From an uncultured Acidobacteriota bacterium (GTDB lineage: Bacteria > Acidobacteriota > Polarisedimenticolia > Polarisedimenticolales > JAIQFR01), in the NCBI GenBank assembly GCA_937864465.1, contig CALMJU010000083.1, positions 47,456-111,455 on the forward strand: 64,000 nucleotides of DNA. Reading direction: 5' to 3'. The translations under genes were made by a program, and so were the position numbers. How positions within the stretch are numbered: position 1 is the first letter of the stretch; every line of letters starts with the position of its first letter. Positions 49,204 to 64,000 of this stretch are shown here, in pieces. The notes under the pieces were generated by a model. That model saw only the letters and a list, made by a program, of their open reading frames with translations. It searched no databases and was not told the origin of the DNA.

Positions 49204-50103
49204 CTAGAGAATCCGGTTCCGGAAGGGGTCGCCGATCGAGCGCGGCACCCCGCGCTCCGCCGGGGGATCCCGGCGGCCCCCCCCGGCCCGGTCGGCCTCG
49301 CGCGCGAGCCGCCGCAGGCTCGCGATCGCCCGGCTCTGCATCTGGCGGACCCGCTCCCGGCTCAGATCCAGGAGCTCGCCCACCTCCGCGAGCGTCTTCC
49401 GAGGGTGGCCGTCGAGACCGAAGCGCCAGACGAGGATCCGCTGCTGCCGGTCGGGAAGCTCCGAGAGGAGCTTCCAGAGCAGGCTCTCGCGGTCCTCCCG
49501 GAAGAGACCCGCGTCCGGAGCGGCGTCCGGGCGCCCTGCGATCGTCTCCTCGAGGAGCAGGGTCGCCATGCCGCCGGCCCGCTCTTGCAGGGAGACCTCC
49601 CGGCGGCAGTATCCGAGAAGCGTCTCCACGTCGCGGACCGGCATCCCGGCCTCGCGTGCGATCTCCTCGGTGGTCGGCGGCCTCCCGATCGCCGCCGCGA
49701 CGTCGTGCTCGGCCGCGCGCACACGCGTGAGCCGCCGCAGCCGGTACCGGGGCACCCGGACGAGGCTGGCCTGCCGCATCGCGATCTCGCCGATCCGCTT
49801 CCGGGCCCACCAGAGGCCGTACGTGATGAATCGCACGCCGCGCTTCGGATCGAAGCGCCCCGCCGCCTCGATGAGCCCGAGGATCCCCTCGCCCTTCAGG
49901 TCCTCGAACGGGATCCCGAGGTGCCGGTACTCGCGCGCGAGCCAGGCCACCGACGCCTCGTGCCGCCGGACCAGCTCCCAGACCTGCTCGTCGTGGGAGC
50001 CGGACGAGCCTCGCGGCGCATCCGTGGGCTTCGAGCCCGTGTCTTTGCCGTGGAACCCCGGCTCGAGGCGATGTGCCACCGCCGTCCCCCCCGGAACGGA
50101 CAT
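49204..50103 (-). CDS. sigma-70 family RNA polymerase sigma factor (group 3-like, regions 2-4)
   Basis: Region 2 (GILGLIEAAGRFDPKRGVRFITYGLWWARKRI), region 3 (TTEEIAREAGMPVRDVE), region 4 (TLAEVGELLDLSRERVRQMQSRAIASLRR). Start at ATG 50103 is tentative. The rest of the 568-aa track ORF is shadow of the HD gene. Confidence 0.8.
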   Translation of the reverse strand: MSVPGGTAVAHRLEPGFHGKDTGSKPTDAPRGSSGSHDEQVWELVRRHEASVAWLAREYRHLGIPFEDLKGEGILGLIEAAGRFDPKRGVRFITYGLWWARKRIGEIAMRQASLVRVPRYRLRRLTRVRAAEHDVAAAIGRPPTTEEIAREAGMPVRDVETLLGYCRREVSLQERAGGMATLLLEETIAGRPDAAPDAGLFREDRESLLWKLLSELPDRQQRILVWRFGLDGHPRKTLAEVGELLDLSRERVRQMQSRAIASLRRLAREADRAGGGRRDPPAERGVPRSIGDPFRNRIL

Positions 50104-50322
50104 GTCCGCTTTCCTGCGCCTCGATCGGGAACCGTACGCGGAACGTCCGCCGGCGAGAAGCGGAATGACGCGGCCGGCGCAGGTATCTGCGGACATGCGG
50201 TCCGCTTCCGGTGCGGTCCGGCCTACAGCTTGGACCGCCGGAGACCCCGGCGGGGCCCGCCCGTCTGGACTGCCTCCGGGAAGCGGGCTACCCTGTTCGG
50301 TCCGCGCCGCGAGGAGACCCGC

Positions 50323-50865
50323 ATGAGAGACGAGATCCGAAAGCTCTGGCCCGAGGCGGATTGGATCGCCGATCCGGCCCTTCGAGACAAAGTCCTGGCG
50401 ACCTGGGAGAAGGCGTTCGAGTGGAGCCCTCTCGAACCCCGGGACCTCCGGGAGATCCCCTTCACCCTCCTCGTCCCCGACTGCCCGATCACCTTCATGG
50501 AGCACAAGCGCTGCGTCGTCCACATCGCCCGCCGTGCCGCGGAGGCGATGCGGGAGCACCTGGGCAGGGCGCTCCCGATCGACATGGACACCGTGATCGC
50601 CGGCGCGATCCTGGCCGACGTCGGCAAGCTCCTCGAGTACGAGAAGGTGGACGGCAAGGCGCGGCAGAGCCCGCGCGGGGAGGCGCTCCGCCACCCGTTC
50701 ACGGGGGTCGCGATCGCCATGATGTGCGGCGTCCCGGACGCCGTCTGCCACGTCGTCGCCACGCACGCGGGCGAGGGCGATCTCGTGAAGAGGAGCACCG
50801 AGGCCTACATCGTGCACCACGCCGACTTCATGAGCTTCCTTCCGTTCAAGAACCTGAAAAAGTGA
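50323..50865 (+). CDS. HD-domain metal-dependent phosphohydrolase
   Basis: HKRCVVHIARRA, LADVGK and ATHAGEGD give an HD-superfamily His/Asp pattern. 180 aa. GAGGAG lies upstream of ATG 50323. Confidence 0.7.
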   Translation: MRDEIRKLWPEADWIADPALRDKVLATWEKAFEWSPLEPRDLREIPFTLLVPDCPITFMEHKRCVVHIARRAAEAMREHLGRALPIDMDTVIAGAILADVGKLLEYEKVDGKARQSPRGEALRHPFTGVAIAMMCGVPDAVCHVVATHAGEGDLVKRSTEAYIVHHADFMSFLPFKNLKK

Positions 50866-50872
50866 GGAGAGC

Positions 50873-52270
50873 ATGAGCGCCACGCCGACGGGCTCGAAGG
50901 AAACCATCACCGCGAGGATCTCCCGGTACGCCGCCGGCGTGCGCTACGACGCGATCGCCCCCGAGGCGGCGCACGAGGCGAAGCGGTACCTTCTCGACTC
51001 GATCGGCTGCGCCCTCGGCGGATTCCTCCAGCACGACTGCCGGATCGCGCTCGACGTGCTCGGCGAGCACGCGGGGCGGGGGCCCTGCACGGTCGTCGGG
51101 ACCGGGGCGCGGATGGACCCGGTCACGGCGTCGCTCCTGAACGCGCTCATGGTGCGCGTGATGGACTACAACGACATCTACTGGAAGCAGGACCCCTCGC
51201 ACCCCTCGGACATCATCCCCGCCGCGATCGCGTGCGGGGAGCGGGCGGGGAAGGACGGCCGGGAGCTGATCGTCGGCATCGTGCTCGGCTACGAGTTCGA
51301 GCAGCGCCTGTGCGAGGCGGCGTTCCCCGGAATCCGGGAGCGCGGCTGGCACCACGCCACGCTCACCGCGTTCGTCTCGCCGATCGTCGCGGCGAGGATG
51401 CTCGACCTCGACGCCGCGAGAATGCAGCATGCGATCGGGATCTCCGGCAGCCGCCATTTCACCCTCGGCGCGGCGGTCTCCGGGAAGCTCTCGATGGTCA
51501 AGAACACGGTGGACCCGCTCGCGACGCAGAGCGGCGTCCTCGCCGCGCTCCTCGCCGAGAAGGGATACACCGGCCCCGAGCACGTGATCGACGGCAAGGA
51601 GGGGATGGTCCACTGTCTCGGCCCGGAGTGGAAGCTCGGAATCCTCGAGGAGGGGCTCGGAGCGTCGTGGCGGATCGTGCAGTGCAGCATGAAGGCGTAC
51701 CCGACGGAGGCGCTGACCCACACGCCGATCTCGGCGGTGCTCGACCTCGTGCGGGAGCACGACCTGAAGCCCGACCGGATCGCGAAGGTCCACATCCGCT
51801 CCCTTGCCCGCGCGGCCGACATCCTGTCCGACCCCTCGAAGTACGACCCGCGCACGAAGGAGACGGCCGACCACTCCCTCCCGTACGTCGTCGCCGCCGC
51901 GATCGCGGAGCGGCAGGTGACCCCGGCGCAGTTCCGGGACGAGAAGATCCTGGATCCCGTGATCCGGGCGCAGCTCCCGAAGGTCGAGGTCGTCGCGGAC
52001 CCGGAGATCGAGAAGCTCTTCCCGAAGCTCTACCGGACGATCGTGAAGATCACGACGGCCGACGGAGGCACGTTCGAGAAGCAGGTGGACTTCCCGAAGG
52101 GAGACCCCCGGAACCCGCTGACCGACCGCGAGGTCGAGGAGAAGTTCGAGGCGCTCGCGGACCGGGTGCTGTCGAAGGAGCGCCAGAGGAAGGTCAAGGA
52201 CGCCGTCTGGGGGCTCGAGAAGCTCCGCTCGATCGGGGACCTGATGGGCCTTCTGGCGACCGACCGGTAG
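50873..52270 (+). CDS. MmgE/PrpD family protein (2-methylcitrate dehydratase family)
   Basis: 465 aa. DSIGCALGG, VMDYNDIY, HPSDIIPAAIA, KAYPTEALTHTP and DHSLPYVVAAA are the family pattern. Substrate unknown. Confidence 0.85.
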   Translation: MSATPTGSKETITARISRYAAGVRYDAIAPEAAHEAKRYLLDSIGCALGGFLQHDCRIALDVLGEHAGRGPCTVVGTGARMDPVTASLLNALMVRVMDYNDIYWKQDPSHPSDIIPAAIACGERAGKDGRELIVGIVLGYEFEQRLCEAAFPGIRERGWHHATLTAFVSPIVAARMLDLDAARMQHAIGISGSRHFTLGAAVSGKLSMVKNTVDPLATQSGVLAALLAEKGYTGPEHVIDGKEGMVHCLGPEWKLGILEEGLGASWRIVQCSMKAYPTEALTHTPISAVLDLVREHDLKPDRIAKVHIRSLARAADILSDPSKYDPRTKETADHSLPYVVAAAIAERQVTPAQFRDEKILDPVIRAQLPKVEVVADPEIEKLFPKLYRTIVKITTADGGTFEKQVDFPKGDPRNPLTDREVEEKFEALADRVLSKERQRKVKDAVWGLEKLRSIGDLMGLLATDR

Positions 52271-52283
52271 GGAGAGGCGCGCG

Positions 52284-54218
52284 ATGGGACAGACCGCGAT
52301 CGAGAAGATCGTTCAGAGCCACATGGCCGAGGGGCCGGGGGACCGGCCGGTGCGCGCCGGCGACTTCGTGTCGCTCCGCCCGCGGCACGTGATGACGCAC
52401 GACAACACCTCGGCGGTCCTGAAGAAGTTCCGGTCGCTCGGGGTGCCGAAGGTGAAGGACCCGAGGCAGCCGGTCTTCGCCCTCGACCACGACATCCAGA
52501 ACTCGTCGGACGACAACCTCAGGAAGTACCGCTCGATCGAGGCGTTCGCGAGGGAGCAGGGGATCGACTTCTACCCTGCCGGGACCGGCATCGGGCACCA
52601 GATCGTGTGCGAGCAGCTCTACGCGGCGCCGGGGGCGCTCGTCGTGGCCTCGGACTCCCACAGCAACATGTACGGCGCCTTGGGCGCGCTCGGCACGCCG
52701 ATCGTCCGGACCGACGCGGCGGCCGCCTGGGCCACGAGCGAGTTCTGGTGGCAGGTGCCGCCGGCGGTCCAGGTCGTGCTCGAGGGCGCCCTCGGGGGAG
52801 GAGCGACCGGGAAGGACGTCATCCTCGCGCTGTGCGGCCTCTATCCCGACGACGTGCTGAACGCCGCCGTAGAGTTCGCGGGGCCGGGGGTCGCGGGCCT
52901 CTCGATGGACTCCCGGATGGCGATCGCCAACATGACGACCGAGTGGGGCGCGCTCGCGGGGTGGTTCCCGGTGGACCGCGTGACTCTCGACTGGGCCCGG
53001 GGCCGGCTCGCGCGCGGCGCCAAGGGATCGAGCGCTTCCGATCTCGCCTCCTGGGAGAAGGACCCTCCCCGGCCCGACGCGGACGCCTCCTACTCGCTCC
53101 GGATCCGTCTCGACCTCTCCGAGGTCGTGCCGCACGTCGCGGGTCCCGACGCGGTGCAGGTCGCGACTCCCCTGCCGGAGATCGAGGCGAAGGGGATCGC
53201 GATCCGGAAGGCGTATCTCGTGTCGTGCGTCAACTCGCGCCTCGAGGACCTCGAGGCCGCGGCCCGCGTCCTCGAGGGGAAGAGGGTCGCGGCGGGCGTC
53301 TCCTTCTACGTCGCGGCCGCCTCGAGGGAGATCCAGGAGGAGGCGGAGCGCCGGGGCGCCTGGAAGACGATCCTCGACGCCGGGGCGATCCCGTTGCCTC
53401 CGAGCTGCGGCCCCTGCATCGGCCTCGGCACCGGCCTTCTCGAGGCGGGCGAGGCCGGCATCTCGGCGACGAACCGGAACTTCAAGGGCCGGATGGGATC
53501 CCGCGACGCGAAGTGCTACCTCGCGAGCCCCGAGGTCGTGGCGGCGTCCGCCGTGGCCGGGAGGATCGCGGGGCCGAGGAAGTCCTCCTCGCGGCGGCCC
53601 GGCCGGAGGATCGAGGTCCTCGCGCCGCCCGCCCCGCCGGCGGAGAAGGTCGCGATCCTCGAGGGGTTCCCCTCCCGAGTCCGCGGCCGCCTCGTCTTCG
53701 CCCCGCAGGACAACCTGAACACCGACGGGATCTACGGGAAGGACTACACGTATCGCGAGGACATGACCCGCGAGGACATGGCCCGCGTCGTGATGGAGAA
53801 CTACGATCCCGACTTCGCGAAGCGAGCGCGGGCGGGCGACGTGCTCGTGGGCGGGTTCAACTTCGGGACCGGATCCAGCCGCGAGCAGGCGGTCACGGCG
53901 CTCCAGGCCAAGGGGATCCCCCTCGTGGTCGCCGGGAGCTTCTCGCAGACCTACCTGCGGAACGCGTTCAACAACGGGTTCCTCTGCATCGAGGTCCCGG
54001 ATCTCGTGCGGCGGCTCCGGGAGGCCTTCGCCTCGGAGATCGCGGCGAAGACGAGGACGGTCCTCCCGGGCGACGAGGCGGACGTGGACTTCGTCTCGGG
54101 AACGCTCGCGTTCCGAGGGGAGACGTTCCGCTTCCCGCCGCTCGGGAGCGTCCCGCAGTCGCTCGTCGTCGCGGGGGGCGTCGAGAACCTGGTCCGCCGG
54201 AAACTCGGCCTCGCGTAG
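52284..54218 (+). CDS. aconitase-family hydratase, fused large and small (LeuC/LeuD-like) domains (homoaconitase / Aquifex-type aconitase class)
   Basis: VMTHDNT, GIGHQ, ASDSHSNMYGALG, the SCVNSR and SCGPCIGLG Fe-S ligands, ATNRNFKGRMG, and a swivel domain with GFNFGTGSSREQA. 644 aa. Confidence 0.88.
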   Translation: MGQTAIEKIVQSHMAEGPGDRPVRAGDFVSLRPRHVMTHDNTSAVLKKFRSLGVPKVKDPRQPVFALDHDIQNSSDDNLRKYRSIEAFAREQGIDFYPAGTGIGHQIVCEQLYAAPGALVVASDSHSNMYGALGALGTPIVRTDAAAAWATSEFWWQVPPAVQVVLEGALGGGATGKDVILALCGLYPDDVLNAAVEFAGPGVAGLSMDSRMAIANMTTEWGALAGWFPVDRVTLDWARGRLARGAKGSSASDLASWEKDPPRPDADASYSLRIRLDLSEVVPHVAGPDAVQVATPLPEIEAKGIAIRKAYLVSCVNSRLEDLEAAARVLEGKRVAAGVSFYVAAASREIQEEAERRGAWKTILDAGAIPLPPSCGPCIGLGTGLLEAGEAGISATNRNFKGRMGSRDAKCYLASPEVVAASAVAGRIAGPRKSSSRRPGRRIEVLAPPAPPAEKVAILEGFPSRVRGRLVFAPQDNLNTDGIYGKDYTYREDMTREDMARVVMENYDPDFAKRARAGDVLVGGFNFGTGSSREQAVTALQAKGIPLVVAGSFSQTYLRNAFNNGFLCIEVPDLVRRLREAFASEIAAKTRTVLPGDEADVDFVSGTLAFRGETFRFPPLGSVPQSLVVAGGVENLVRRKLGLA

Positions 54219-54273
54219 AGAGGAAACGGGCAACCGCCCGACACGAAATCACGAGGAAGCTGGAGGCATCCCC

Positions 54274-55458
54274 ATGGCGCGTCACACGGTCGTCACGATG
54301 CCGGGAGACGGGATCGGCAAGGTCGTCCTCCCGGAATCGCTCCGGGTCCTGAATGCGGTCGGATTCGAGGCCGACTACGTCCACGCCGACATCGGATGGG
54401 ACTGCTGGATCGAGGAGGGGAACGCCCTCCCCGACCGGACGGTCGAGATGCTCGCGAGGCACCGGCTCGGCCTCTTCGGCGCGATCACGTCGAAGCCGAA
54501 GGCGAAGGCCGACGCGGAGCTCAAGCCGGAGCTCCGCGGCAAGGGGCTGAGCTACTTCAGCCCGATCGTCGGCATGCGGCAGAAGTTCGGCCTGGACGTC
54601 TGCGTCCGCCCCTGCCGGTCCTTCGCGGGGAACCCGCTGAACTTCATCCGCAAGAAGCCCGGCGGCGGCTTCGAGGAGCCGAGCGTCGACGCCGTGATCT
54701 TCCGCCAGAACACCGAGGGGATGTACGCCGGCGTCGAGTGGACGAACCCGTCCGCGGGCGTCCGCGACGCGCTCGCCTCGCACCCGAAGTTCAAGCCGTT
54801 CCGCGACGTCCCCGGCCCCGACCTCGCGGTCTCGGCCCGGATCGTCACCCGCTCCGGCTGCTTCCGGATCGCGAAGGCCGCATTCGAGCACGCGCGGAAG
54901 CACGGGTACAGGTCGGTCACGGTCTGCGAGAAGCCCAACGTCCTCCGCGAAACCTCCGGGATGATGGAGGAGGAGGCCAAGAAGGTCCAGAAGCTCTTCC
55001 CCGAGATCCCGCTCTGGTCGGTCAACATCGACGCCCAGATGATGTGGCTGACGAAGAACCCGGAGGAATACGGCGTCGTCGTCGCGACGAACCTCTTCGG
55101 CGACATCATCTCCGACGCCTTTGCCGGGCTGGTCGGGGGCCTGGGCTTCGCCTGCTCGGCGAACGTCGGGGCCGAGGTCGCCGTCTTCGAGCCGACCCAC
55201 GGATCCGCGCCGAAGTACGAGAAGCTCGACCCGCCGATCGTCAACCCGATCGCGATGATCCTCTCGGCCGCGATGATGCTCGACCACGTCGGCGAGGGGG
55301 AGAAGGCGGAGCGGATCCGCAAGGCGATCGCCGCGGTCGTTTCCGAAGGGAAGGTCCGCACGTACGACATGCTGCGGCTCCCCGGCGGCCCCGACGTCTT
55401 CAAGCACGGCGCCGCGACGACGGCCCGGATGACCGACGCGATCCTGGAGAGGCTCTAG
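54274..55458 (+). CDS. isocitrate/isopropylmalate dehydrogenase family oxidative decarboxylase
   Basis: MPGDGIGKVV, FGAITSKP, IFRQNTEGMYAG, NLFGDIISD and EPTHGSAPK are the family motifs. Substrate (isocitrate, homoisocitrate or other) is not resolvable by eye. Confidence 0.88.
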   Translation: MARHTVVTMPGDGIGKVVLPESLRVLNAVGFEADYVHADIGWDCWIEEGNALPDRTVEMLARHRLGLFGAITSKPKAKADAELKPELRGKGLSYFSPIVGMRQKFGLDVCVRPCRSFAGNPLNFIRKKPGGGFEEPSVDAVIFRQNTEGMYAGVEWTNPSAGVRDALASHPKFKPFRDVPGPDLAVSARIVTRSGCFRIAKAAFEHARKHGYRSVTVCEKPNVLRETSGMMEEEAKKVQKLFPEIPLWSVNIDAQMMWLTKNPEEYGVVVATNLFGDIISDAFAGLVGGLGFACSANVGAEVAVFEPTHGSAPKYEKLDPPIVNPIAMILSAAMMLDHVGEGEKAERIRKAIAAVVSEGKVRTYDMLRLPGGPDVFKHGAATTARMTDAILERL

Positions 55459-55479
55459 CTCATGATCGATCGCGCCCGA

Positions 55480-55617
55480 TCGCGGATTCGACCGGCGCGG
55501 CACGCTTCGGCGTTGCGCGGCCGAGGGTCGCCGCGCCGCCTCGCTCCGCGCGGCGAGCGGCCTTTCGACGAAGAACCGGCCGCTCGCCGCGAGGGCCGCT
55601 TGCGGTCGAATCCGCGA
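55480..55617 (+). promoter_or_regulatory. highly structured intergenic RNA element (nested perfect stems) upstream of citDE
   Basis: Outer 15-bp stem 55480-55494 / 55603-55617 (TCGCGGATTCGACCG / CGGTCGAATCCGCGA). Inner 13-bp hairpin 55550-55562 / 55578-55590 (GCGGCGAGCGGCC / GGCCGCTCGCCGC). ACGC-UUCG-GCGU tetraloop hairpin at 55502-55513. CGAGG/CCTCG stem at 55522-55543. Confidence 0.6.
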
Positions 55618-55618
55618 C

Positions 55619-55643
55619 GGACCGCGCAGGACCGGCAGGACCG
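55619..55643 (+). repeat. three tandem GGACCG motifs immediately upstream of the citDE Shine-Dalgarno sequence
   Basis: GGACCG at 55619-55624, 55629-55634 and 55638-55643, followed by AAGGAGG (55647-55653) and ATG 55659. Confidence 0.6.
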
Positions 55644-55658
55644 CGAAAGGAGGGCGCT

Positions 55659-56882
55659 ATGCCCGGCGTGATCGGACGAGGCGAGGCGGGGCGCCGCGGC
55701 GACGACGTGCGCTCCGATCTTTACGTCGCCGTCGAGATCCGGGACGGCGGGGGAATCGACCTGCGCCTCGAGTCGCGGGTCGCCGCCTACTACGGCGACT
55801 CGCTCCGGCGGCAGGCGGAGGAGACGCTCCGGGCGCTCGGGGTGGCCCACGCCCGCGTCGAGATCGCCGACCAGGGAGCGCTCCCGTTCGTCGTCGAGGC
55901 CCGGATCGAGGCGGCCGCACGCCGCGCGGGGCACGCGCCCCGAGGCGACGCCCGCCCGCCCGCGGCGGCTCCCGCGCGGGACCCCTCTCCCCGCGACCGG
56001 CTGCGGCGCTCGCGCCTGTACCTTCCCGGCGGGGAGCCGAAGTTCTTCGTCAACGCCGGGCTCCACGAGCCGGACGGGATCATCCTCGACCTCGAGGACT
56101 CGGTCCACCCGGCCGAGAAGGACGCGGCGCGCCTCGTCGTCCGGAACGCCCTCCGGGCGGTCGACTTCGGCGCCGCGGAGCGGATGGTCCGGATCAACCA
56201 GCTCCCGCTCGGTCTCGAGGACCTCGACGCGATCGTCCCCGAGCGCCCGGAGCTGATCCTGATCCCGAAGGTGGAGACACCGGAGCAGGTGCTCGACGTC
56301 GAACGGCGGATCGCGGAGATCCTCTCCCGGACCGGGAAGGACCGGCCGCTCTGGATCATGCCGATCCTCGAGTCGGCCGAGGGGATCGAGCGCGCGAGAG
56401 AGATCGCGAGGGTCTCCGGCCGGGTCGTCGCCCTGACGATCGGCCTCGAGGACTACACCGCCGACCTCGGCGTCCCGAAGACGAGGGAAGGAGCGGAGAC
56501 GCTCTACGCCCGGCAGCGGCTCGTCAACGCGGCGAAGGCGGCAGGCGTGCAGGCGATCGACTCCGTGTACGGCGACGTCGGCGATCTCGACGGCCTCAGG
56601 ATTTGGGCCGAGAGGTCGCGAGGCATGGGGTTCGAGGGGATGGGATGCGTCCACCCCCGCCAGATCCGCGTCATCCACGAGGCCTTCGCCCCTTCGAGGG
56701 CGGAGATCGAGAGGGCGCTCCGGATCGACGCGGCGTTCCGCGACGCGGAGGCCAGGGGCTTGGGCGTCGTCAGCCTCGGCTCGAAGATGATCGACCCGCC
56801 CGTGGTCGAGAGGGCCCGGAGGCTCGTCGAGCGGGCGCGGCGGATGGGGCTCGTCCCCGACGCCGGGGAGCAGGTCCGATGA
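55659..56882 (+). CDS. citrate lyase acyl-carrier (CitD-like) fused to citrate lyase beta / citryl-CoA lyase (CitE-like)
   Basis: The N-terminal roughly 90 aa align by eye with CitD (DLRLESRVAAYYGDSL..., ADQGALPFVVEARIEAA). A linker follows, then the CitE/HpcH fold (RRSRLYLPGGEPKF, ILDLEDSV, ESAEG, GLEDYTADLG, HPRQI). AAGGAGG lies upstream. Confidence 0.8.
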   Translation: MPGVIGRGEAGRRGDDVRSDLYVAVEIRDGGGIDLRLESRVAAYYGDSLRRQAEETLRALGVAHARVEIADQGALPFVVEARIEAAARRAGHAPRGDARPPAAAPARDPSPRDRLRRSRLYLPGGEPKFFVNAGLHEPDGIILDLEDSVHPAEKDAARLVVRNALRAVDFGAAERMVRINQLPLGLEDLDAIVPERPELILIPKVETPEQVLDVERRIAEILSRTGKDRPLWIMPILESAEGIERAREIARVSGRVVALTIGLEDYTADLGVPKTREGAETLYARQRLVNAAKAAGVQAIDSVYGDVGDLDGLRIWAERSRGMGFEGMGCVHPRQIRVIHEAFAPSRAEIERALRIDAAFRDAEARGLGVVSLGSKMIDPPVVERARRLVERARRMGLVPDAGEQVR

Positions 56883-58444
56883 GCCGCAGAGCGGAGATCG
56901 TGGTCAACGCGGCGGGCCGGAAGGTGCCCGCGCTCGTCAACGGCCGCGAGCAGGTCGCCTACCGGGGGGTCGGGAAGCACGTCCCCGACGGCCGGAAGGC
57001 CGCCCCTCCCGTGAGGAGCTGCGCGAGCTACCCGCCGAACGGCGACAAGCGCGCTCCGGACCTCGAGACCGCGCTCCGGGAATGCGGCCTCCGGGACGGG
57101 ATGACGATCTCGAACCACCACCACCTCCGGAACGGAGACCGCGTCGCGCTCGAGGTCCTGCAGGCGGCCGCGCGGATGGGCGCGAAGGACCTCGTGTGGT
57201 TCCCCTCCGCCTCCTTTCCCTGCCAGGAGCCGGTCATCGACCTCATGGAGCGGGGGGTCGTCCACCACATCGAGGGCTCGATGAACGGCCCCCTGGGCGA
57301 GTACTGCTCGCGGGGGAAGATGCGGGGCATGGGAGTCCTCCGCTCCCACGGCGGCCGCTGGCAGGCGATCCAGGACGGCGAGGTCAAGATCGACGTCGCG
57401 GTGATCGCCGCGCCGACCGCCGATGCGTTCGGCAACGCCGACGGCTCGCACGGGAAGTCGGCCTGCGGGTCGCTCGGCTTCGCGCTGGCCGACTCCGTCT
57501 ACGCCGACCGCGTGATCGTCGTCACCGACAACCTCGTCCCCTTCCCCTGCGTCCCCTGGCAGATCCAGGGGGGGAACGTGGACTTCGTCGTCGAGGTCCC
57601 CTCGATCGGCGACCCGGCGAAGATCGTCTCCGGCACGACGGAGATCACGAAGAGCCCCGACCGCCTCCTCATCGCCGAGAACATCGCCCGGTTCCTCCGG
57701 GACGCGGGGATCATGAGGGACGGCTTCTCCTTCCAGGCGGGGGCCGGCGGGATCGCTCTCGCGTTCGTCATGTTCCTCCGGGAAATGATGAAGGAGGCCG
57801 GGGTCCGCGCCCGGTTCGTACGCGGCGGCTCGACGAAGTACCTGGTGCAGCTCCTCGCGGACGGGCTGACCGACTTCATCCTCGACGGGCAGACGTTCGA
57901 CCTCGACGGCGTGCGGTCCATCGGATCGGACCCGCGTCACGTCGCGACATCCCCCTTCACCTCGTACAACTACAACGGCAAGGGGAACTTCGCCTCGATG
58001 GTGGACGCGGTCGTCCTCGGCGCGACCGAGGTGGACGTCCATTTCAACGCCAACGTCGTCACCCACTCCGACGGCCGCCTCCTCCACGGGATCGGCGGCT
58101 GGCAGAACTGCCTGTTCTCGGGGTGCACGATCCTCGCGGTCCCGGCGTTCCGCGACCGGATTCCGGTGATCGTGGACGAGGTGACGACGCTCGTCGGCCC
58201 CGGCGAGATGATCGACGTCGTCGCGACCGAGCGCGGCATTGCGATCAACCCGCGCCGCAAGGACCTCCTGGACGCCGTGAAGGGCTCGAAGCTCCCGATC
58301 CGCCCGATCGAGGAGATCAAGGCCGAGGTCGACGCGATCTGCGGCGGCGCGCCACGCCGGGCCCGCTTCAAGGACAACCCGGTCGCCGTCGTGAAATGGG
58401 TGGACGGGACCGTGCTCGACACGGTGTGGGAGATCGAGGGGTAG
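56879..58444 (+). CDS. citF: citrate lyase alpha subunit (citrate CoA-transferase)
   Basis: Near end-to-end resemblance to CitF: GLRDGMTISNHHHLRNGD, SHGGR, DAFGNADG, CGSLGF, FSFQAGAGGIALA, NANVVTHSDGRLLHGIGGWQN, ATERGIAINP. ATGA overlap with citDE. Confidence 0.9.
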   Translation: MSRRAEIVVNAAGRKVPALVNGREQVAYRGVGKHVPDGRKAAPPVRSCASYPPNGDKRAPDLETALRECGLRDGMTISNHHHLRNGDRVALEVLQAAARMGAKDLVWFPSASFPCQEPVIDLMERGVVHHIEGSMNGPLGEYCSRGKMRGMGVLRSHGGRWQAIQDGEVKIDVAVIAAPTADAFGNADGSHGKSACGSLGFALADSVYADRVIVVTDNLVPFPCVPWQIQGGNVDFVVEVPSIGDPAKIVSGTTEITKSPDRLLIAENIARFLRDAGIMRDGFSFQAGAGGIALAFVMFLREMMKEAGVRARFVRGGSTKYLVQLLADGLTDFILDGQTFDLDGVRSIGSDPRHVATSPFTSYNYNGKGNFASMVDAVVLGATEVDVHFNANVVTHSDGRLLHGIGGWQNCLFSGCTILAVPAFRDRIPVIVDEVTTLVGPGEMIDVVATERGIAINPRRKDLLDAVKGSKLPIRPIEEIKAEVDAICGGAPRRARFKDNPVAVVKWVDGTVLDTVWEIEG

Positions 58445-58497
58445 GACCTCTCTGCCTCCGGTCGGCGGCCCCGGCGACCCGGTCTCGTGGTACAAAT

Positions 58498-60162
58498 CCC
58501 CTGTAGGGTGCCAGCGAGAGTAGCTGGCGAAAATCGACACGAATTGGATCGAGCTGATCCTGCGCTGGTGATCGCGGAGTCATCCGACGGAGGTTCGCGG
58601 CGGTCCTGAATGAGCCACGCGTCGCGCTCGAAGCGGCCCGAAGGCGCGCGTCGGGCACACCGCCTCCCGAGAGGTGCCAGGGTTCCTACGCGGAAACCCG
58701 GGTCGCTACTCGGCGCGCCGAAGCGCGATGACCGGCAGGTGCCTTTCCCCGCCTCGGTGCTCGACGACGAGCTCGACCTCGACGCCGGGGCGGCCGCGCA
58801 CGAGCGCCTGTGGTCGAGCGCACCGCGACGGTCTCGGCCTACGGTCCTGTGGCTCGAATCGCGGCTTCCGGCAAGCGGGCATCTTCCGGAAGTAGATCTC
58901 GTCGGGCGTGGCTCCCGCGAGGAAGGCGTAAGGCCGGTCGGCGTTGAACTAGGCGATGTACGCGACAATCTCGCCCTCGAGCTCAGCCCGTCGGAACGGC
59001 ACCAGGATCGCCCGGGCGCATTCGGCCTTCATCGACCGGATGAACCGCTCGACGACGGCGAGGCTGCCGTACTTCCCGATGGCCCCGAATCGGCGGCGGA
59101 CGCCTCGCCGGCGACACCAGGTCGCGAAGTCGCTCGCGGTGAACTGCGTGCCGTGGTCGGTGATGAGGTGGTCGGGCCGCGAGCGGAGCGCCCGGCAGAC
59201 GCGACCGAGAAACCGGACCACCTCCGCCGTCGTCGGCCCCTTCAATGAAGACGGCCGCTCCCATCACCCTCCGGGAGTAGCGGTCCACGACGACAACGAC
59301 CCACCAGCAGAACGGCCAGCACTGCGGGAACGCGAACGGGGCCCAGGCGGTCCAGAGACAGGACGACGTGGCGACCGTCGTGAGGTCGAGGTGCCAGACG
59401 TGATTGGGGCGCTTCGCGGTTACGACTCGGAGGCCCGATTGATCGAGAGCCTTCGGAGTCGGCTTCGGAGCCGGGTGGAGCATTCTGCGCACCGTCGTCG
59501 CGCTGAGATGGAGCCCGGCCCGGGCGAGCACCCGCGCAACGGGCCGCGTGCCCACGGAGGGGCACAACGCCTTCAGCCTCCGCACGAGGTACCCGACGAA
59601 CTCGGGGAATCGATTGACCGGCTCGCGGATCTGGACGAGCGCATCGGGTTCCTCGTCGTCGAGACGGCGGTTCCAGTGGATGACGATCAGGGGCGTGACG
59701 AGCATGTGCCGAGCGGTTTGGGCCAGGGACCAGCCCCTCGCCGCGCGCAGCTCGAGGATCGCAAGTCTCTCGGTCGGACGGTAGTGCGGTCGACGCTGCG
59801 GGGAGATCCGCTCCATGCGCGAGTCCTTGATGCGGATCTCCTCCTTCAGGAGCGCGATCTCTTGGTGGAGGCGGTCGTTCTCTTCCTGCAGGTAGATTCG
59901 GGCGTTCCAGCTGCTGGCGGCGTGGCCTCGATCGGCGGTGAGGGAGAAGCGGGCCAGGGAGATGGCGTGGATCGCCCTGGACCGGACACGCCGCGACCAG
60001 TCCTTCGGCAGGCGGACACAGGATCGCTCGTCGATCGCCGGCATTCGAGCCTCCGTAGGAGCGTAGAATCAGTCCGTGCCGACGGTAGGATAAGTCGTTG
60101 CTGTGCAGGTCGATGCAGGCGGAGGAGAGGACCTAAAGAATCGGTGGCGCACTACAGAGGGC
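58498..60162 (-). mobile_element. insertion sequence (about 1.67 kb) with imperfect terminal inverted repeats and a decayed DDE transposase
   Basis: Left end is CCCCTGTAGGGTGCCAGCGA (58498-58517). Right end is TCGGTGGCGCACTACAGAGGGC (60141-60162), whose reverse complement GCCCTCTGTAGTGCGCCACCGA matches 16 of 22 positions. Subterminal hairpin CGCCAGC-gagagta-GCTGGCG in the MITE copy (TGCCAGC-gagagta-GCTGGCG, 6 bp, at the IS left end). Both ends recur at 62535-62686. No target-site duplication found. Confidence 0.8.
58706..60044 (-). pseudogene. DDE (rve/integrase-core) transposase, disrupted by one frameshift and one in-frame TAG
   Basis: N-terminal HTH plus coiled coil (LQEENDRLHQEIALLKEE). 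Catalytic core HVWHLDLT and VVVVDRYSRRVMG in one frame, then KGPTTAEVVRFL, LITDHGTQFTA and ERFIRSMKAE in another (shift near 59243-59250). TAG at 58949-58951 is followed in frame by FNADRPYAFLAGATPDEIY, down to the stop at 58706. Confidence 0.8.
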
Positions 60163-60341
60163 TCGATGTGGTGCGACAGATCTCGCAAGTTGAGCGCCGG
60201 GACCCAGAGGCCGCGATTCGTCTCGCATCGTTGTCCTTCGTTGAAAGTTTCCTCGACCCGGATGCGAGCGCGCCCTCGAATCTGCTCTCATCGGTTGTCC
60301 TGGATGGTGTGGAATGCGTTCAGGTCCAGCCGAACCTCTGC

Positions 60342-60370
60342 TTGTGCTGGTACTGCTGGACATGCATAAT
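60342..60370 (+). promoter_or_regulatory. putative sigma70-type promoter (TTGTGC-N17-CATAAT) for the cargo operon
   Basis: TTGTGC at 60342-60347 and CATAAT at 60365-60370, about 135 nt upstream of the TTG start at 60506. Confidence 0.35.
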
Positions 60371-60505
60371 CTGGGAGTGCTGCAGCGTGCCAACGGAATA
60401 CCCGGGCTCTTGCCGGTAAGAATGCACTTGGCCCCGACGCTGCCAAGCGCCCCGTCCGCGCAGGAGCGAGCGGGGGAGCATTCCAGCCGGGAAAAGGAAT
60501 AGTTC

Positions 60506-61060
60506 TTGAGCGCCGCCAGGGTCGGAACGCTGCGCGCCGGAATCGTGCTGCTCGCCGTCACATTCGCTGGGATCCACTCGTTGGTTCTCTCGGACCGATT
60601 TGCGCATTTGACCGGCGACGGCTGGGTGGGTAGAAGACTGCCGAGTCTGACCTTGACGCTGGCCGACGGCAGAGTGCGCCCTGTTCCCCAGCCCGGCCCC
60701 CCGCTCGTGCTTCTCGCGTGGGCCTCTTGGTGCGAGCCTTGTCATGCCGAGATCCGGCGCCTGCTCGATCTCCAATACTCCAAGACCGTCGTCTTCGGCG
60801 TTGTCTTGCTGAACTTCGGCGAGAGTGCGGATGTCGTCCGAACACACGCGGCCGACTTCGGCCCGGGACACCCGGCCATCGCGTTGGACCCAGAGCGGGA
60901 GATTGCAAACCGATTGCAGATCGGCAGGCTACCCACGACCATCCTCGTCGATACAACAGGCAGAGTGGTCTATCGCGCTGAGGGAGGGGACCAGAGTCAC
61001 GTCGAGGAGATCGAGAGACGAGTGAAGCTGGCCTACGAGGCGGCTGCGCATGGCCTGTGA
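60506..61060 (+). CDS. TlpA-like thiol:disulfide oxidoreductase (thioredoxin fold, membrane-anchored)
   Basis: N-terminal TM helix (LRAGIVLLAVTFAGI), redox motif WASWCEPC, GRLPTTILVD cis-Pro loop region. TTG start with AAAGGA 9 nt upstream. Lower GC than the surrounding chromosome. Confidence 0.75.
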   Translation: MSAARVGTLRAGIVLLAVTFAGIHSLVLSDRFAHLTGDGWVGRRLPSLTLTLADGRVRPVPQPGPPLVLLAWASWCEPCHAEIRRLLDLQYSKTVVFGVVLLNFGESADVVRTHAADFGPGHPAIALDPEREIANRLQIGRLPTTILVDTTGRVVYRAEGGDQSHVEEIERRVKLAYEAAAHGL

Positions 61061-61775
61061 CCCGATCGTGTCCATCGTCTCGCTGACCAAGGTCTATCGG
61101 GGCTATGGCGTCAAGCATTGCGCCTTGCGCAACGTATCCCTGGACATTTTCCCGGGCGATAGTCTGGGACTTGTCGGTCGGAACGGGGCTGGCAAGACGA
61201 CGCTCCTGAGCTGCGTTCTTGGATTCCTTCGACCCACGTCCGGTAACATCCGTGTCTTCGGCGCATCGCCGGACGATCCGCGGAGCCGTTCGAGTGTCGG
61301 CTACCTGTCCGAGGACAACAGACTCTATTCCTCCTACTCGGTCGACCAAATTCTCGGCCTCGTGAGTGAGCTCCGTTCGGTTCGTCTCTCCCCGGCGGAC
61401 AAACGACTGCTCCTGGAGGACGTCGGTCTCGAAGGGGTCGAAAGAGCACGCGTGGGACGGCTGTCGAAAGGCATGCGACAGCGACTGGGGATTGCCCTTG
61501 CGAACATCGGCGAGCCGAAGCTCCTTGTGATGGACGAGCCGCTGACCGGCCTGGACCCGGTATCGAGGCAGATGACGCTCGACCTCGTACGGCGCTTCCG
61601 CCGCCAAGGTCGCACGGTCGTATTCTGCAGCCACCTGCTCGACGACGTTGCCAAAGTGTGCTCTCGCGTATGTGTTCTGCATCTGGGCGAGGTCACGCTG
61701 GATGGCACGACCGACCCGCTCGCTGCGGGTACGGACGGATGGAACTCGCGCGTCCTGTCCGCAATGGGGTGGTGA
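61050..61775 (+). CDS. ABC transporter ATP-binding protein
   Basis: Walker A GRNGAGKTT, signature LSKGMRQR, Walker B LLVMDEP, H-loop CSHL. 11-nt overlap with the upstream gene. Confidence 0.88.
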   Translation: MACDPIVSIVSLTKVYRGYGVKHCALRNVSLDIFPGDSLGLVGRNGAGKTTLLSCVLGFLRPTSGNIRVFGASPDDPRSRSSVGYLSEDNRLYSSYSVDQILGLVSELRSVRLSPADKRLLLEDVGLEGVERARVGRLSKGMRQRLGIALANIGEPKLLVMDEPLTGLDPVSRQMTLDLVRRFRRQGRTVVFCSHLLDDVAKVCSRVCVLHLGEVTLDGTTDPLAAGTDGWNSRVLSAMGW

Positions 61776-62507
61776 ATGCGCGGCCGCGCTGTCCTGCGCC
61801 TGGCGGAGCACACGCTGCGGCTGAACCTCGGCGCCGCGGTCGTGTGCCTGCTCGTCTTTCCCGCGGTCTACCTCATGTGGCGTTTGGGCAGCGGCGCGGC
61901 ACCCCGGTCGTTTTATTCGATCGCATCCAAGCTCCAGATCGTGACTGCGGTAATCTTCGGTGTCCTGGCAGCCTCGCACGAAAGGCGGGAGGGGACTCTG
62001 CGGTTCCTGCTCGCTCAACCGATCGGGCGCGATACCGTTGTGTTCGGCGAGCTGGTGAGTCTGGCCGCCTTCGGTCTTCTGAACTCGGCGATTCCGACGG
62101 TGATTCTCGTCGTCGAGGCGGCGCGCGCAGACATGCCGATCCGCGAGACGCTCGCCTTCCTGGTGCTGACCTTCGGATTCCTGCGCCCCCTCGTGATCGC
62201 GAGCGTGGCCTTCTTGCTCGCCTCCATCACGTCTCCCTGGGTCTCAGGGGCGGTCGCTCTGGCACTTCCCATCGTGTACGGCTTGATGGCGGACGGTCTC
62301 TTCGCCCGAAGCGAATTCCAGAGGACGGTGAACCGTCTGGCACGCTGGGTGTTGCCTTCGCTCGATCAACTGGACCTGTACCGTTGTTTGGCGTTGAACG
62401 AAGCCCCAGCACTCATCGGCTCGATGGTCGTTTGTCTCGATAGCCTATCGTTCATCGGATTGATGTGGCTCGTGGCACTCTTGGTGTCGCGGCACTTCGA
62501 GTCCTGA
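61776..62507 (+). CDS. ABC-2 type transporter permease
   Basis: 243 aa with about 6 TM helices. The ATG directly follows the ATPase stop (TGAATG). Confidence 0.75.
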   Translation: MRGRAVLRLAEHTLRLNLGAAVVCLLVFPAVYLMWRLGSGAAPRSFYSIASKLQIVTAVIFGVLAASHERREGTLRFLLAQPIGRDTVVFGELVSLAAFGLLNSAIPTVILVVEAARADMPIRETLAFLVLTFGFLRPLVIASVAFLLASITSPWVSGAVALALPIVYGLMADGLFARSEFQRTVNRLARWVLPSLDQLDLYRCLALNEAPALIGSMVVCLDSLSFIGLMWLVALLVSRHFES

Positions 62508-62534
62508 AGGGCTCCTGGTGCGCCGTGAGAAGGT

Positions 62535-62686
62535 CCGTTGTAGGGCGCCAGCGAGAGTAGCTGGCGGGAAACGACACGGATCTGCAGTGGGTTGGGTGCC
62601 TCGACCGACGTCTGACGCACCCGATGGATGATCGCGGCGGTCGTGAACGAGAGGGCCTGGAGAATCGGTGGCGCGCTACAGGGGGC
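62535..62686 (-). mobile_element. MITE-like internal-deletion derivative (about 150 bp) of the IS at 58498-60162
   Basis: The left part TGTAGGGCGCCAGCGAGAGTAGCTGGCGGGAAACGACACGGAT closely matches IS 58502-58544. TCGCGGCGGTCGTGAACGAG matches IS 58593-58613. The right part GAATCGGTGGCGCGCTACAGGGGGC matches IS 60138-60162. Same orientation as the IS. Confidence 0.8.
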
Positions 62687-62693
62687 CATCGCC

Positions 62694-64000
62694 ATGACAT
62701 CTTCCGTTCGATTCGCCGGCCGCGTCGCTCTCGCCGCCTGCGTCCTCGTGGGGGCGCTCCACGGGGTGCGGGGGGCGAGTTGGAAGTGGCTCTCCGAGTT
62801 CACGCCGGAGAGCGCCGGGAGCCTGAAGGAGCTCCACGAGGAGCTCCTGTCGCCCAGGCTCTCCGGGGTCCTCGGGGTGCCGGTCCGGGACGTCCGGCTG
62901 CGCGAGGACTTCATGGAGATCCACCTCCGCTCGGGGACGGTGTTCCTCGAGCCTCCCGTCCGGGGCTGCCCGGCGGGCGCCTACTTCGTCGGCGAGGGGA
63001 CCTTCCGCTTCGTGCCCGAGGCGAGGAAGACCAGGCAGGACCTGGAGTTCTGGTTCGGCGCCCCGACGATCGAAGCGGAGCCGATCCGCAGCGCGTACTT
63101 CTTCAGCCTCGGCGGGGCTTCCCTCCTGGAGCGGTTGGGCGTCTCCGCGGAGCCGTCGGTGCCCCTCGCGGCGCCGGCGGCGTACGAGGAGGCGAAGCTG
63201 GCCCTCCGACAGACCGGAACGATGCTCCTCCGGCAGTTCCTGAACCGCGAGGGGCGGTCCAAGGGGACGTTGCACGCCGTGCTCGAGCCGGGAGCGATCC
63301 GGGACGCCGGAGAGAAGGAGGCGTTCTATCTCTACTCCCTGGACCCCGCGGCCGACGACGAGGTGAGCCTCTCGGTCTTCGGCCACTCCGAGGTGCAGTC
63401 GACGCTGCCGCACAAGTACTACTTCCACAAGCTCGCCTGGTGCCGGTCGAAGACGCCCCGATTCGTGCCGCAGGCCAAGGTGGATCTCTACAGCACGAAG
63501 CTGCAGATCGGCGGCGGGCTCCGGGAGGCGGAGGAGGAGACGACCGTGACGCTGATCCCCGACGCGGGGACCCGGGCGCTCACGTTCGCCCTGACGCCGC
63601 GCATGCGGGTCCGATCCGTGACGGGGCCCGGGGGCGAGCCGCTGCCGTTCGTCCAGTGGGGTTGGCTCGACAACGATCCGAACTACGACGCCACGCTCGT
63701 CGTCGAGCTGCCCCCGCAGAGCGAGCCGGGGAAGAGCCGGGAGATTCGAACCGTCTCCTCCGGGCGGCTGTTCGAGCCGTGGTACGAGTTCTACTGGCTG
63801 GCGGACGAGGATGCCTGGCATCCCCTTCTCGCCGACGCGGATGAGGCTCGGTACGAGACCTTCCTGTCCATCCCGAAGTCGAAGGAGGGGATCGCCGCCG
63901 GGCGCCTCGTCGAGGACTCGGTTCGAGGCGCCCAGCGCCACTATCACTACCGGACCGAGCGGCCCCACAAGCGGTCCACCGTGTACTTCGGCGACTTCGA
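62694..64000 (+). CDS. hypothetical secreted protein, N-terminal 435 aa only (runs off the right edge); possibly an M1-peptidase-like N-terminal beta domain
   Basis: Absent from the ORF track because it has no stop in the window. From ATG 62694 the frame stays open to 64000 with very high GC3. Signal-like MTSSVRFAGRVALAACVLVGALHG. The family call is weak. Confidence 0.7.
   Translation, partial: MTSSVRFAGRVALAACVLVGALHGVRGASWKWLSEFTPESAGSLKELHEELLSPRLSGVLGVPVRDVRLREDFMEIHLRSGTVFLEPPVRGCPAGAYFVGEGTFRFVPEARKTRQDLEFWFGAPTIEAEPIRSAYFFSLGGASLLERLGVSAEPSVPLAAPAAYEEAKLALRQTGTMLLRQFLNREGRSKGTLHAVLEPGAIRDAGEKEAFYLYSLDPAADDEVSLSVFGHSEVQSTLPHKYYFHKLAWCRSKTPRFVPQAKVDLYSTKLQIGGGLREAEEETTVTLIPDAGTRALTFALTPRMRVRSVTGPGGEPLPFVQWGWLDNDPNYDATLVVELPPQSEPGKSREIRTVSSGRLFEPWYEFYWLADEDAWHPLLADADEARYETFLSIPKSKEGIAAGRLVEDSVRGAQRHYHYRTERPHKRSTVYFGDF

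Follow-up and report, generated by a model that had tools for sequence, protein, structure and literature searches.

On which acid does a lyase of the citrate lyase type act when its genes are joined in one operon to those of a PrpD-family enzyme, an aconitase-family hydratase and a dehydrogenase of the isocitrate dehydrogenase (IDH) family, and when the accessory genes citC, citG and citX do not accompany it? The question is raised by positions 50323-58444 of a 64,000-nucleotide stretch of DNA (hereafter the window) from an uncultured Acidobacteriota bacterium (assembly GCA_937864465.1, contig CALMJU010000083.1), which are filled by six co-directional and near-contiguous open reading frames (ORFs) on the + strand. 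A first inspection of the letters alone (the original prediction) had described six co-directional genes, a CitD domain fused to CitE, a retained carrier serine and the absence of citC, citG and citX from the window, and had offered three readings: a tricarboxylic acid (TCA) cycle/citrate-fermentation branch point, a reductive route from 2-oxoglutarate to citrate, or a pathway for a different tricarboxylate such as homocitrate. All six ORFs are indeed present on the + strand, at the coordinates given below, and every one of the six proteins scores far above the cut-off of its Pfam family. The subfamily evidence for the hydratase and the dehydrogenase favors the last of the three readings, and we consider it likely that the operon works on the homocitrate series. 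For the fuller proposal, in which we infer substrates, direction and stereochemistry, and in which the operon would act catabolically and convert 2-oxoadipate to 2-oxoglutarate and acetate, we estimate a probability of about 0.45. The operon is a new combination of known families (a citrate-lyase-type complex, a fungal-type homoaconitase, a homoisocitrate dehydrogenase and a PrpD-type enzyme); in the literature searched we found nothing relevant on the gene combination, on a homocitrate lyase or dehydratase, or on an aminoadipate route run in reverse.

Hydratase and dehydrogenase subfamilies

The third gene (52284..54218, + strand) encodes a 644-aa aconitase-family enzyme in which the large and small domains are fused. 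Against the homoaconitase model TIGR00139 it reaches 747.4 bits (cut-off 529.9), double what it scores on any model for aconitase or isopropylmalate isomerase, and it passes no aconitase model of NCBIfam. Its nearest cluster in the protein-language Atlas is ‘Homoaconitase, mitochondrial family’, which mixes bacteria and Mucoromycota, and a search of 1.8 billion representatives recovered a 54% identical protein from Amoeboaphelidium, a fungal-lineage eukaryote. In a maximum-likelihood tree a supported clade (95/90) unites the hydratases of the cluster with the Amoeboaphelidium protein and with several relatives from bacteria; this clade is separate from the large-subunit-only LeuC/HacA types and from the aconitase encoded elsewhere in the same genome. 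Among the homologues, GSSRE and the Cys motifs that provide the cluster ligands are conserved, and the specificity loop of the small domain carries an invariant Arg (T-Y-R) where isopropylmalate and citramalate isomerases are hydrophobic. By model score, Atlas cluster and tree alike, the enzyme is assigned to the Lys4-type homoaconitases, and it is predicted to interconvert cis-homoaconitate and homoisocitrate.

Relatives of the hydratase within this clade occur in other gene contexts. One of them lies on a bacterial metagenome contig (L087:260-7480) between a Lys2-like adenylation-thiolation-reductase (best family TIGR03443, L-aminoadipate-semialdehyde dehydrogenase) and a Lys9-like saccharopine dehydrogenase, a trio of adjacent genes that may indicate a bacterial lysine pathway of the fungal aminoadipate type. 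Another (L085) is paired with a dehydrogenase and is found 7 kb from a pair formed by a lysine-ketoglutarate reductase (LKR)-like protein and a saccharopine dehydrogenase.

The fourth gene (54274..55458, + strand; 394 aa, Pfam Iso_dh 248 bits) belongs to the isocitrate/isopropylmalate dehydrogenase family. The best solved relative of its product is the homoisocitrate dehydrogenase (HICDH) of Thermus, and its best NCBIfam matches are the AksF enzymes of methanogens. Its substrate loop reads Y-F-S-P-I-V-G-M-R, as compared to Y-S-S-P-I-V-A-L-R in the HICDH of Schizosaccharomyces pombe (3ty3), so that S-P-I-V is identical between the two, whereas the isocitrate dehydrogenases aligned in the same search present S-x-N-V. 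None of the four residues (S96, P97, I98 and V99) varies in 70 homologues: the IDH-type Ser is kept as S96, and the IDH-type Asn is replaced by the invariant Ile98 (in the E. coli enzyme, we take S113 and N115 to be the residues that hold the gamma-carboxylate of isocitrate). The catalytic Tyr and Lys and the Asp metal ligands of beta-decarboxylating dehydrogenases (Y151, K220, D253, D277 and D281; alignment A3) are likewise invariant. Dehydrogenases that are paired with homoaconitase in other contexts show the same loop type and the same two insertions. In the choice between an isocitrate and a homoisocitrate type the loop points to the latter, and we propose, from sequence, that the 394-aa enzyme is a homoisocitrate dehydrogenase.

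The lyase, its carrier and the putative stereochemistry of homocitrate

The fifth gene (55659..56882, + strand; 407 aa) bears out the predicted fusion of CitD to CitE, as both an acyl carrier protein (ACP) domain (Pfam PF06857, 66.5 bits) and an HpcH_HpaI domain (174 bits) are found in one protein, with CitD at residues ~1-92, a Pro/Ala linker of variable sequence (as expected for a swinging arm) and CitE at residues ~114-400. The tripeptide R18-S19-D20 of the CitD part is invariant in 80/80 aligned homologues, and the carrier serine (Ser19) claimed by the original prediction is retained in all of them. The sixth gene (56879..58444, + strand; 521 aa, Pfam CitF 436 bits) encodes a CitF-type acyl-ACP:tricarboxylate transferase (lyase alpha). 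Measured against the citrate lyase models, the CitD part lies slightly below its cut-off (TIGR01608, 58.2 versus 63.5 bits), CitF just below (TIGR01584, 486.7 versus 501.45 bits) and the CitE part well below (TIGR01588, 266.7 versus 443.4 bits).

CitG and CitX (or MdcB and MdcG) make and attach 2'-(5''-phosphoribosyl)-3'-dephospho-CoA, the prosthetic group of such carriers. The absence of citC, citG and citX, first claimed for the window, extends to the whole 2.78-Mb genome (100% complete by marker genes), in which none of the three gave a match over cut-off. CitG/MdcB is absent from 29 of the 30 other cluster-bearing genomes and CitX from all 30, CitC is without a match over cut-off in 31/31 cluster-bearing genomes and MdcG is absent from 30/31, the single exception being a genome with a separate MdcB/MdcG locus. 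The candidates for loading the carrier in place of CitG/CitX are an ordinary phosphopantetheinyl transferase and a new activity.

The complex resembles citrate lyase (CitDEF, EC 4.1.3.6; Klebsiella, E. coli) and the citramalate lyase of Clostridium tetanomorphum in its CitF-type exchange, its CitE-type lyase and its CitD-type carrier with Ser; as in these systems the thioester would be conserved, neither ATP nor free CoA would be required, and acetate and a 2-oxoacid would be released. It differs from citrate lyase in the fusion of CitD to CitE, in the (nearly) complete lack of CitC, CitG/MdcB, CitX and MdcG, in the scores of all three parts (below the equivalog cut-offs), in its union with homoaconitase-, HICDH- and PrpD-type genes, and in its putative substrate, homocitrate.

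The product of the second gene (50873..52270, + strand; 465 aa) is a dehydratase/hydratase of the MmgE/PrpD family (Pfam MmgE_PrpD_N 236 bits, MmgE_PrpD_C 168 bits), which matches the superfamily domains only and stays far from the PrpD equivalog cut-offs (89.7 versus 950, 88.6 versus 575 and 64.3 versus 458 bits). When placed among PrpD, CAD/IRG1 and IDS epimerase it is closest to IDS epimerase and IRG1/CAD, and solved PrpDs are matched at a distance (E about 1e-15). The homoaconitases of fungi and Thermus catalyze only the homoaconitate-homoisocitrate half of the isomerization, and the homocitrate half is left to another enzyme (PMC3556520). A second enzyme is therefore needed and the PrpD-family protein is the obvious candidate; we propose that it interconverts homocitrate and cis-homoaconitate.

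A stereochemical argument leads in the same direction. Lyases of the CitE/CitF type are si-type enzymes, which attack citrate at its pro-S arm and take (S)-citramalyl thioesters as substrates, and therefore (S)-homocitrate is the expected form: with 2-oxoglutarate, such a lyase would make or cleave the enantiomer opposite to the one that HMGL-type synthases produce. By analogy with the methylcitrate cycle, where PrpD solves the same problem, aconitase-type enzymes would be unable to dehydrate (S)-homocitrate to the cis alkene, and prochiral citrate would need no PrpD-type enzyme. The likeness to the methylcitrate cycle (PrpC, PrpD, AcnB) comprises a si-type C-C enzyme, a chiral tertiary alcohol, and an isomerization divided into PrpD-type and aconitase-family halves; the operon departs from it in having neither PrpC nor PrpB, in its distant PrpD member, and in the use of a dehydrogenase instead of a lyase after the isomerization.

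Could the operon act on citrate and isocitrate after all, either in a citrate fermentation with a split aconitase and an IDH or in a reductive branch from 2-oxoglutarate through citrate to oxaloacetate and acetate? The best-scoring named families of CitF and CitE are citrate lyase subunits, the PrpD of E. coli acts on citrate and cis-aconitate (NF006943 is named as bifunctional), and one cluster-bearing metagenome-assembled genome (G005) shows no other aconitase-family gene. These points are set against a dehydrogenase with an invariant Ile in place of the Asn kept by all aligned IDHs, a hydratase that passes the homoaconitase model and none for aconitase, and a PrpD-type enzyme for which citrate would have no need. 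Furthermore, the genome under study already encodes, at other loci, a single citrate synthase, a single aconitase of the mitochondrial type and a single Iso_dh protein whose loop reads S-x-N, and AcnA is also present in 4/5 cluster-bearing genomes checked; the cluster is a second, differently specialized enzyme set. On these grounds, the citrate-fermentation and the reductive readings of the original prediction are both disfavored, and we regard a citrate-specific operon as decidedly improbable.

The same data bear on another chiral hydroxy-tricarboxylate or alkylmalate, such as citramalate (with 2-oxobutyrate), the longer (homo)n-citrates known from coenzyme B synthesis, or an acid related to itaconate or to an aconitate isomer. 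In favor of such substrates are the matches of the dehydrogenase to AksF of methanogens (which accepts substrates of several chain lengths), the proximity of the PrpD-family protein to IDS epimerase and IRG1/CAD, and the existence of clostridial citramalate lyase as an ACP-type relative of citrate lyase. They are countered by the invariant Arg of the hydratase loop (as opposed to the hydrophobic residues of isopropylmalate and citramalate isomerases), by the exact match of the SPIV loop to a homoisocitrate enzyme, and by the lack of a hydratase for itaconyl-CoA from the operon. Moreover, IlvD is absent from this genome and from 19/20 relatives of its order (20/21 genomes), so that elongation of 2-oxobutyrate or 2-oxoisovalerate would be of no use. 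We judge a substrate of this kind very improbable. A replacement of leucine/isoleucine biosynthesis was also considered, as the genome shows neither LeuA/CimA nor another LeuC or LeuB, and was rejected owing to the missing IlvD and to the presence of a LeuC-like gene in cluster-bearing Terriglobia as well; the lineage is probably auxotrophic for branched-chain amino acids.

Conservation and layout of the operon

The CitDE fusion was detected in at least 575 species genomes, and in about half of the 20 closest relatives of the same order. To the best 80 loci fetched with this fusion we compared the six window proteins by tblastn. The loci span at least six phyla (Acidobacteriota, mostly Terriglobia, together with Gemmatimonadota, Latescibacterota, Eisenbacteria, Binatia and Rhodothermales), and almost every one that is long enough has the order HD-PrpD-aconitase family-IDH family-CitDE-CitF, at 62-81% identity (CitF is 76-81% identical between phyla). 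Exceptions were found in three loci, where the HD-PrpD pair has moved as a block to the other strand, and in four with CitDE-CitF only. This gene order is far beyond chance. Clustering of all flanking ORFs gave no family in more than ~10 of the 80 loci, the commonest neighbors being functionally unrelated, and the operon therefore has no transporter or regulator of its own.

That the genes might be unrelated neighbors in separate transcription units, which would have spoken against the original prediction, finds some footing in the 200-nt structured gap that parts the IDH-family gene from citDE and in the three loci where the HD-PrpD pair stands apart. It is contradicted by the synteny (six genes in one constant order in at least six phyla, with nothing else conserved nearby) and by the tight spacing in the window, where the genes are separated, in order, by 7, 13, 55 and 200 nt and CitDE and CitF overlap by 4 nt, and where a search of the + strand of the operon found no terminator-like site; we consider this explanation extremely improbable. 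The spacer itself (55459..55658, + strand; 200 nt) folds into a long set of nested helices (-124.8 kcal/mol, z = -4.25 against 200 shuffles), and its length differs widely among the other loci. A riboswitch that would name a ligand was sought with Rfam over positions 49500-58800, and no match was obtained, the spacer included.

The first gene (50323..50865, + strand; 180 aa) is the only one without a place in the proposed scheme. It encodes an HD-domain protein (Pfam HD 26.9 bits, TIGR00277 HDIG 31.7 bits) with a mean column identity of 82% over 20 homologues, and the PrpD gene follows it in almost every locus. The His-Asp dyad of the HD superfamily is not present, as it reads A98-D99 in at least 90% of the homologues; the other His and Asp ligands that binuclear HD enzymes usually have are present (H61, H67, H124, H143, H148, H165, H166 and D168, all invariant). 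Its AlphaFold model (pLDDT 90) retrieved only generic HD folds with Foldseek (best, the HD domain of YhaM, E 3.5e-4). A relative with 35% identity, in which the His-Asp pair is intact, heads a variant operon (L086:6984-13685) with the order HD, aconitase-family gene, 109-aa ORF, second aconitase-family gene and CitF, near which no PrpD, CitD, CitE or Iso_dh gene was recognized; the 109-aa ORF, which matched no known family, was tried as a CitD and ruled out. Because an HD gene leads this operon in the absence of a recognizable CitD/CitE, we argue that the HD protein probably belongs to the isomerase/dehydrogenase part and not to the carrier.

Several further arrangements were encountered. Two loci that carry CitDE-CitF without the other four genes (L053:5625-12794 and L041:3146-10315) have them divergent from an ADP-forming acetyl-CoA synthetase and from an acetyl-CoA hydrolase/transferase fused to a GNAT domain. 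A 266-kb metagenome contig carries a further copy (L082:7960-16057) in which the dehydrogenase and lyase genes of the operon are fragmented, apparently through consensus errors of long-read sequencing and not through decay of the genes. In the window, the operon is directly followed by a transposase-bearing insertion element and a segment of lower GC content (0.625-0.635 at 60-62 kb), both within positions 58500-62700.

Direction of the proposed pathway and its meaning

In the catabolic direction that we prefer, the IDH-family enzyme would carry out a reductive carboxylation (2-oxoadipate + CO2 + NAD(P)H to homoisocitrate), the Lys4-type homoaconitase would dehydrate homoisocitrate to cis-homoaconitate, and the PrpD-family enzyme would hydrate the latter to homocitrate, the (S) form on the stereochemical argument above. 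CitF would then swap homocitrate onto the acetylated carrier domain, freeing acetate, and CitE would cleave the carrier-bound homocitryl group, which would yield 2-oxoglutarate and restore the acetyl-carrier. Overall, 2-oxoadipate, CO2 and NAD(P)H would give 2-oxoglutarate and acetate, with neither ATP nor free CoA involved; with the saccharopine pathway feeding in, our own bookkeeping gives a redox-neutral conversion of lysine to glutamate and acetate that would need no electron acceptor. Such a lysine/2-oxoadipate catabolism, like the stereochemical ground for a PrpD-type enzyme, goes beyond the readings of the original prediction.

Two known systems provide a measure for this scheme. With the fungal upper alpha-aminoadipate pathway (Lys20/21, aconitase, Lys4 and Lys12) the operon shares a hydratase that scores above the Lys4 cut-off and clusters with a homologue from the fungal lineage, a dehydrogenase with the substrate loop of S. 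pombe Lys12, and an isomerization split over two enzymes; in contrast to it, a citrate-lyase-type complex stands in place of the HMGL-type homocitrate synthase, the first half of the isomerization is given to a PrpD-family enzyme and not to aconitase, the direction is probably reversed and the homocitrate enantiomer is probably the opposite one. In citrate cleavage by the reductive TCA cycle (through ATP-citrate lyase, or citryl-CoA synthetase and citryl-CoA lyase), the same logic of carboxylation by an IDH-family enzyme, isomerization, and cleavage to a shorter 2-oxoacid and a C2 unit is encountered, whereas the proposed route would be one carbon longer, use no ATP, release free acetate and not acetyl-CoA, and be catabolic rather than autotrophic.

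The genome offers a context for 2-oxoadipate. On the contig of the operon, ~19 kb downstream and outside the window (C83:122863-128302; locus L094:11408-16847), three genes in a row encode an LKR-like protein, a saccharopine dehydrogenase (Sacchrp_dh_C, 270 bits) and an ADP-forming acyl-CoA synthetase, and in a relative of the same family (G007) a saccharopine dehydrogenase lies ~25 kb from the operon. A Lys2-like reductase was not found in the genome by tblastn, and the NAD_binding_4 matches were only weak and generic. Given the LKR/saccharopine dehydrogenase pair and the missing reductase, 2-oxoadipate has a plausible source and, as far as gene content indicates, no known biosynthetic sink. 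Lysine synthesis of the Thermus type was rejected for lack of LysW, and that of the fungal type for lack of the Lys2-like reductase. DapA is present; a true LysA is missing, as it also is from the rest of the family and from genome G001, and the lineage is probably auxotrophic for lysine.

The chemistry may also be read forwards, with acetyl-carrier and 2-oxoglutarate condensed to homocitrate and carried on to 2-oxoadipate, so that the complex would take the place of homocitrate synthase without using acetyl-CoA and would supply the synthesis of 2-aminoadipate, lysine or another product. Whatever speaks at subfamily level for the homocitrate series speaks just as much for this direction, oxidative decarboxylation is the usual direction of the dehydrogenase family, and the L087 homoaconitase, beside its Lys2-like and Lys9-like genes, is in a biosynthetic context. 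In the same sense, the genome has no HMGL-like synthase (LeuA/CimA or homocitrate synthase family), and true LysA is missing from it, its family and G001. On the other hand, without a Lys2-like reductase and LysW no known route would lead from 2-aminoadipate to lysine, LysA is present in most operon-bearing Terriglobia and Gemmatimonadota, and condensation from free acetate is, by our own estimate, unfavorable at millimolar concentrations; to our knowledge, the known ACP-type lyases (for citrate and citramalate) work in cleavage. We hold the forward direction to be unlikely but still a serious rival.

Several observations weigh against the catabolic homocitrate route itself. Arg85 of the Thermus HICDH is not shared by the dehydrogenase (the Thermus loop reads G-A-I-R), and the solved structures nearest to the PrpD-family protein are IDS epimerase and IRG1/CAD, not PrpD. 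CitF is just under and CitE well under the citrate lyase cut-offs, so that citrate may be compatible as the lyase substrate. Across genomes, most of the Terriglobia and Gemmatimonadota that carry the operon possess LysA, 6/18 cluster-bearing genomes show no Sacchrp_dh_C match, and neither a lysine-catabolic gene nor an aminotransferase nor a transporter is conserved beside the operon in the 80 loci. Moreover, many cluster-bearing genomes are those of aerobes, in which reductive carboxylation is less obviously favored, and by a rough estimate both directions are thermodynamically possible.

Taken in its broadest form, as an ATP- and free-CoA-free route for lysine/2-oxoadipate that would run through (S)-homocitrate and a homocitrate lyase, with a carrier loaded otherwise than by CitG/CitX, and that would be widespread in phyla of soil and sediment, the proposal is one we advance tentatively and with some doubt. 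If true, it would add a route of lysine degradation to the saccharopine/glutaryl-CoA, aminovalerate and fermentative aminomutase routes; it would bypass glutaryl-CoA dehydrogenase, and therefore no electron acceptor would be required. It raises the questions of how a CitD-type carrier is loaded without CitG/CitX and whether a PrpD-family enzyme makes (S)-homocitrate, and it points to a bacterial reservoir of the fungal Lys4 and Lys12 enzyme types. Moreover, it would give a function to thousands of proteins annotated as ‘citrate lyase’, ‘homoaconitase’, ‘isocitrate dehydrogenase’ and ‘HD domain’ from Acidobacteriota, Gemmatimonadota and neighboring groups; as they stand, these annotations lead metabolic reconstructions to assume a fermentation of citrate or a step of the reductive TCA cycle where there is probably none.

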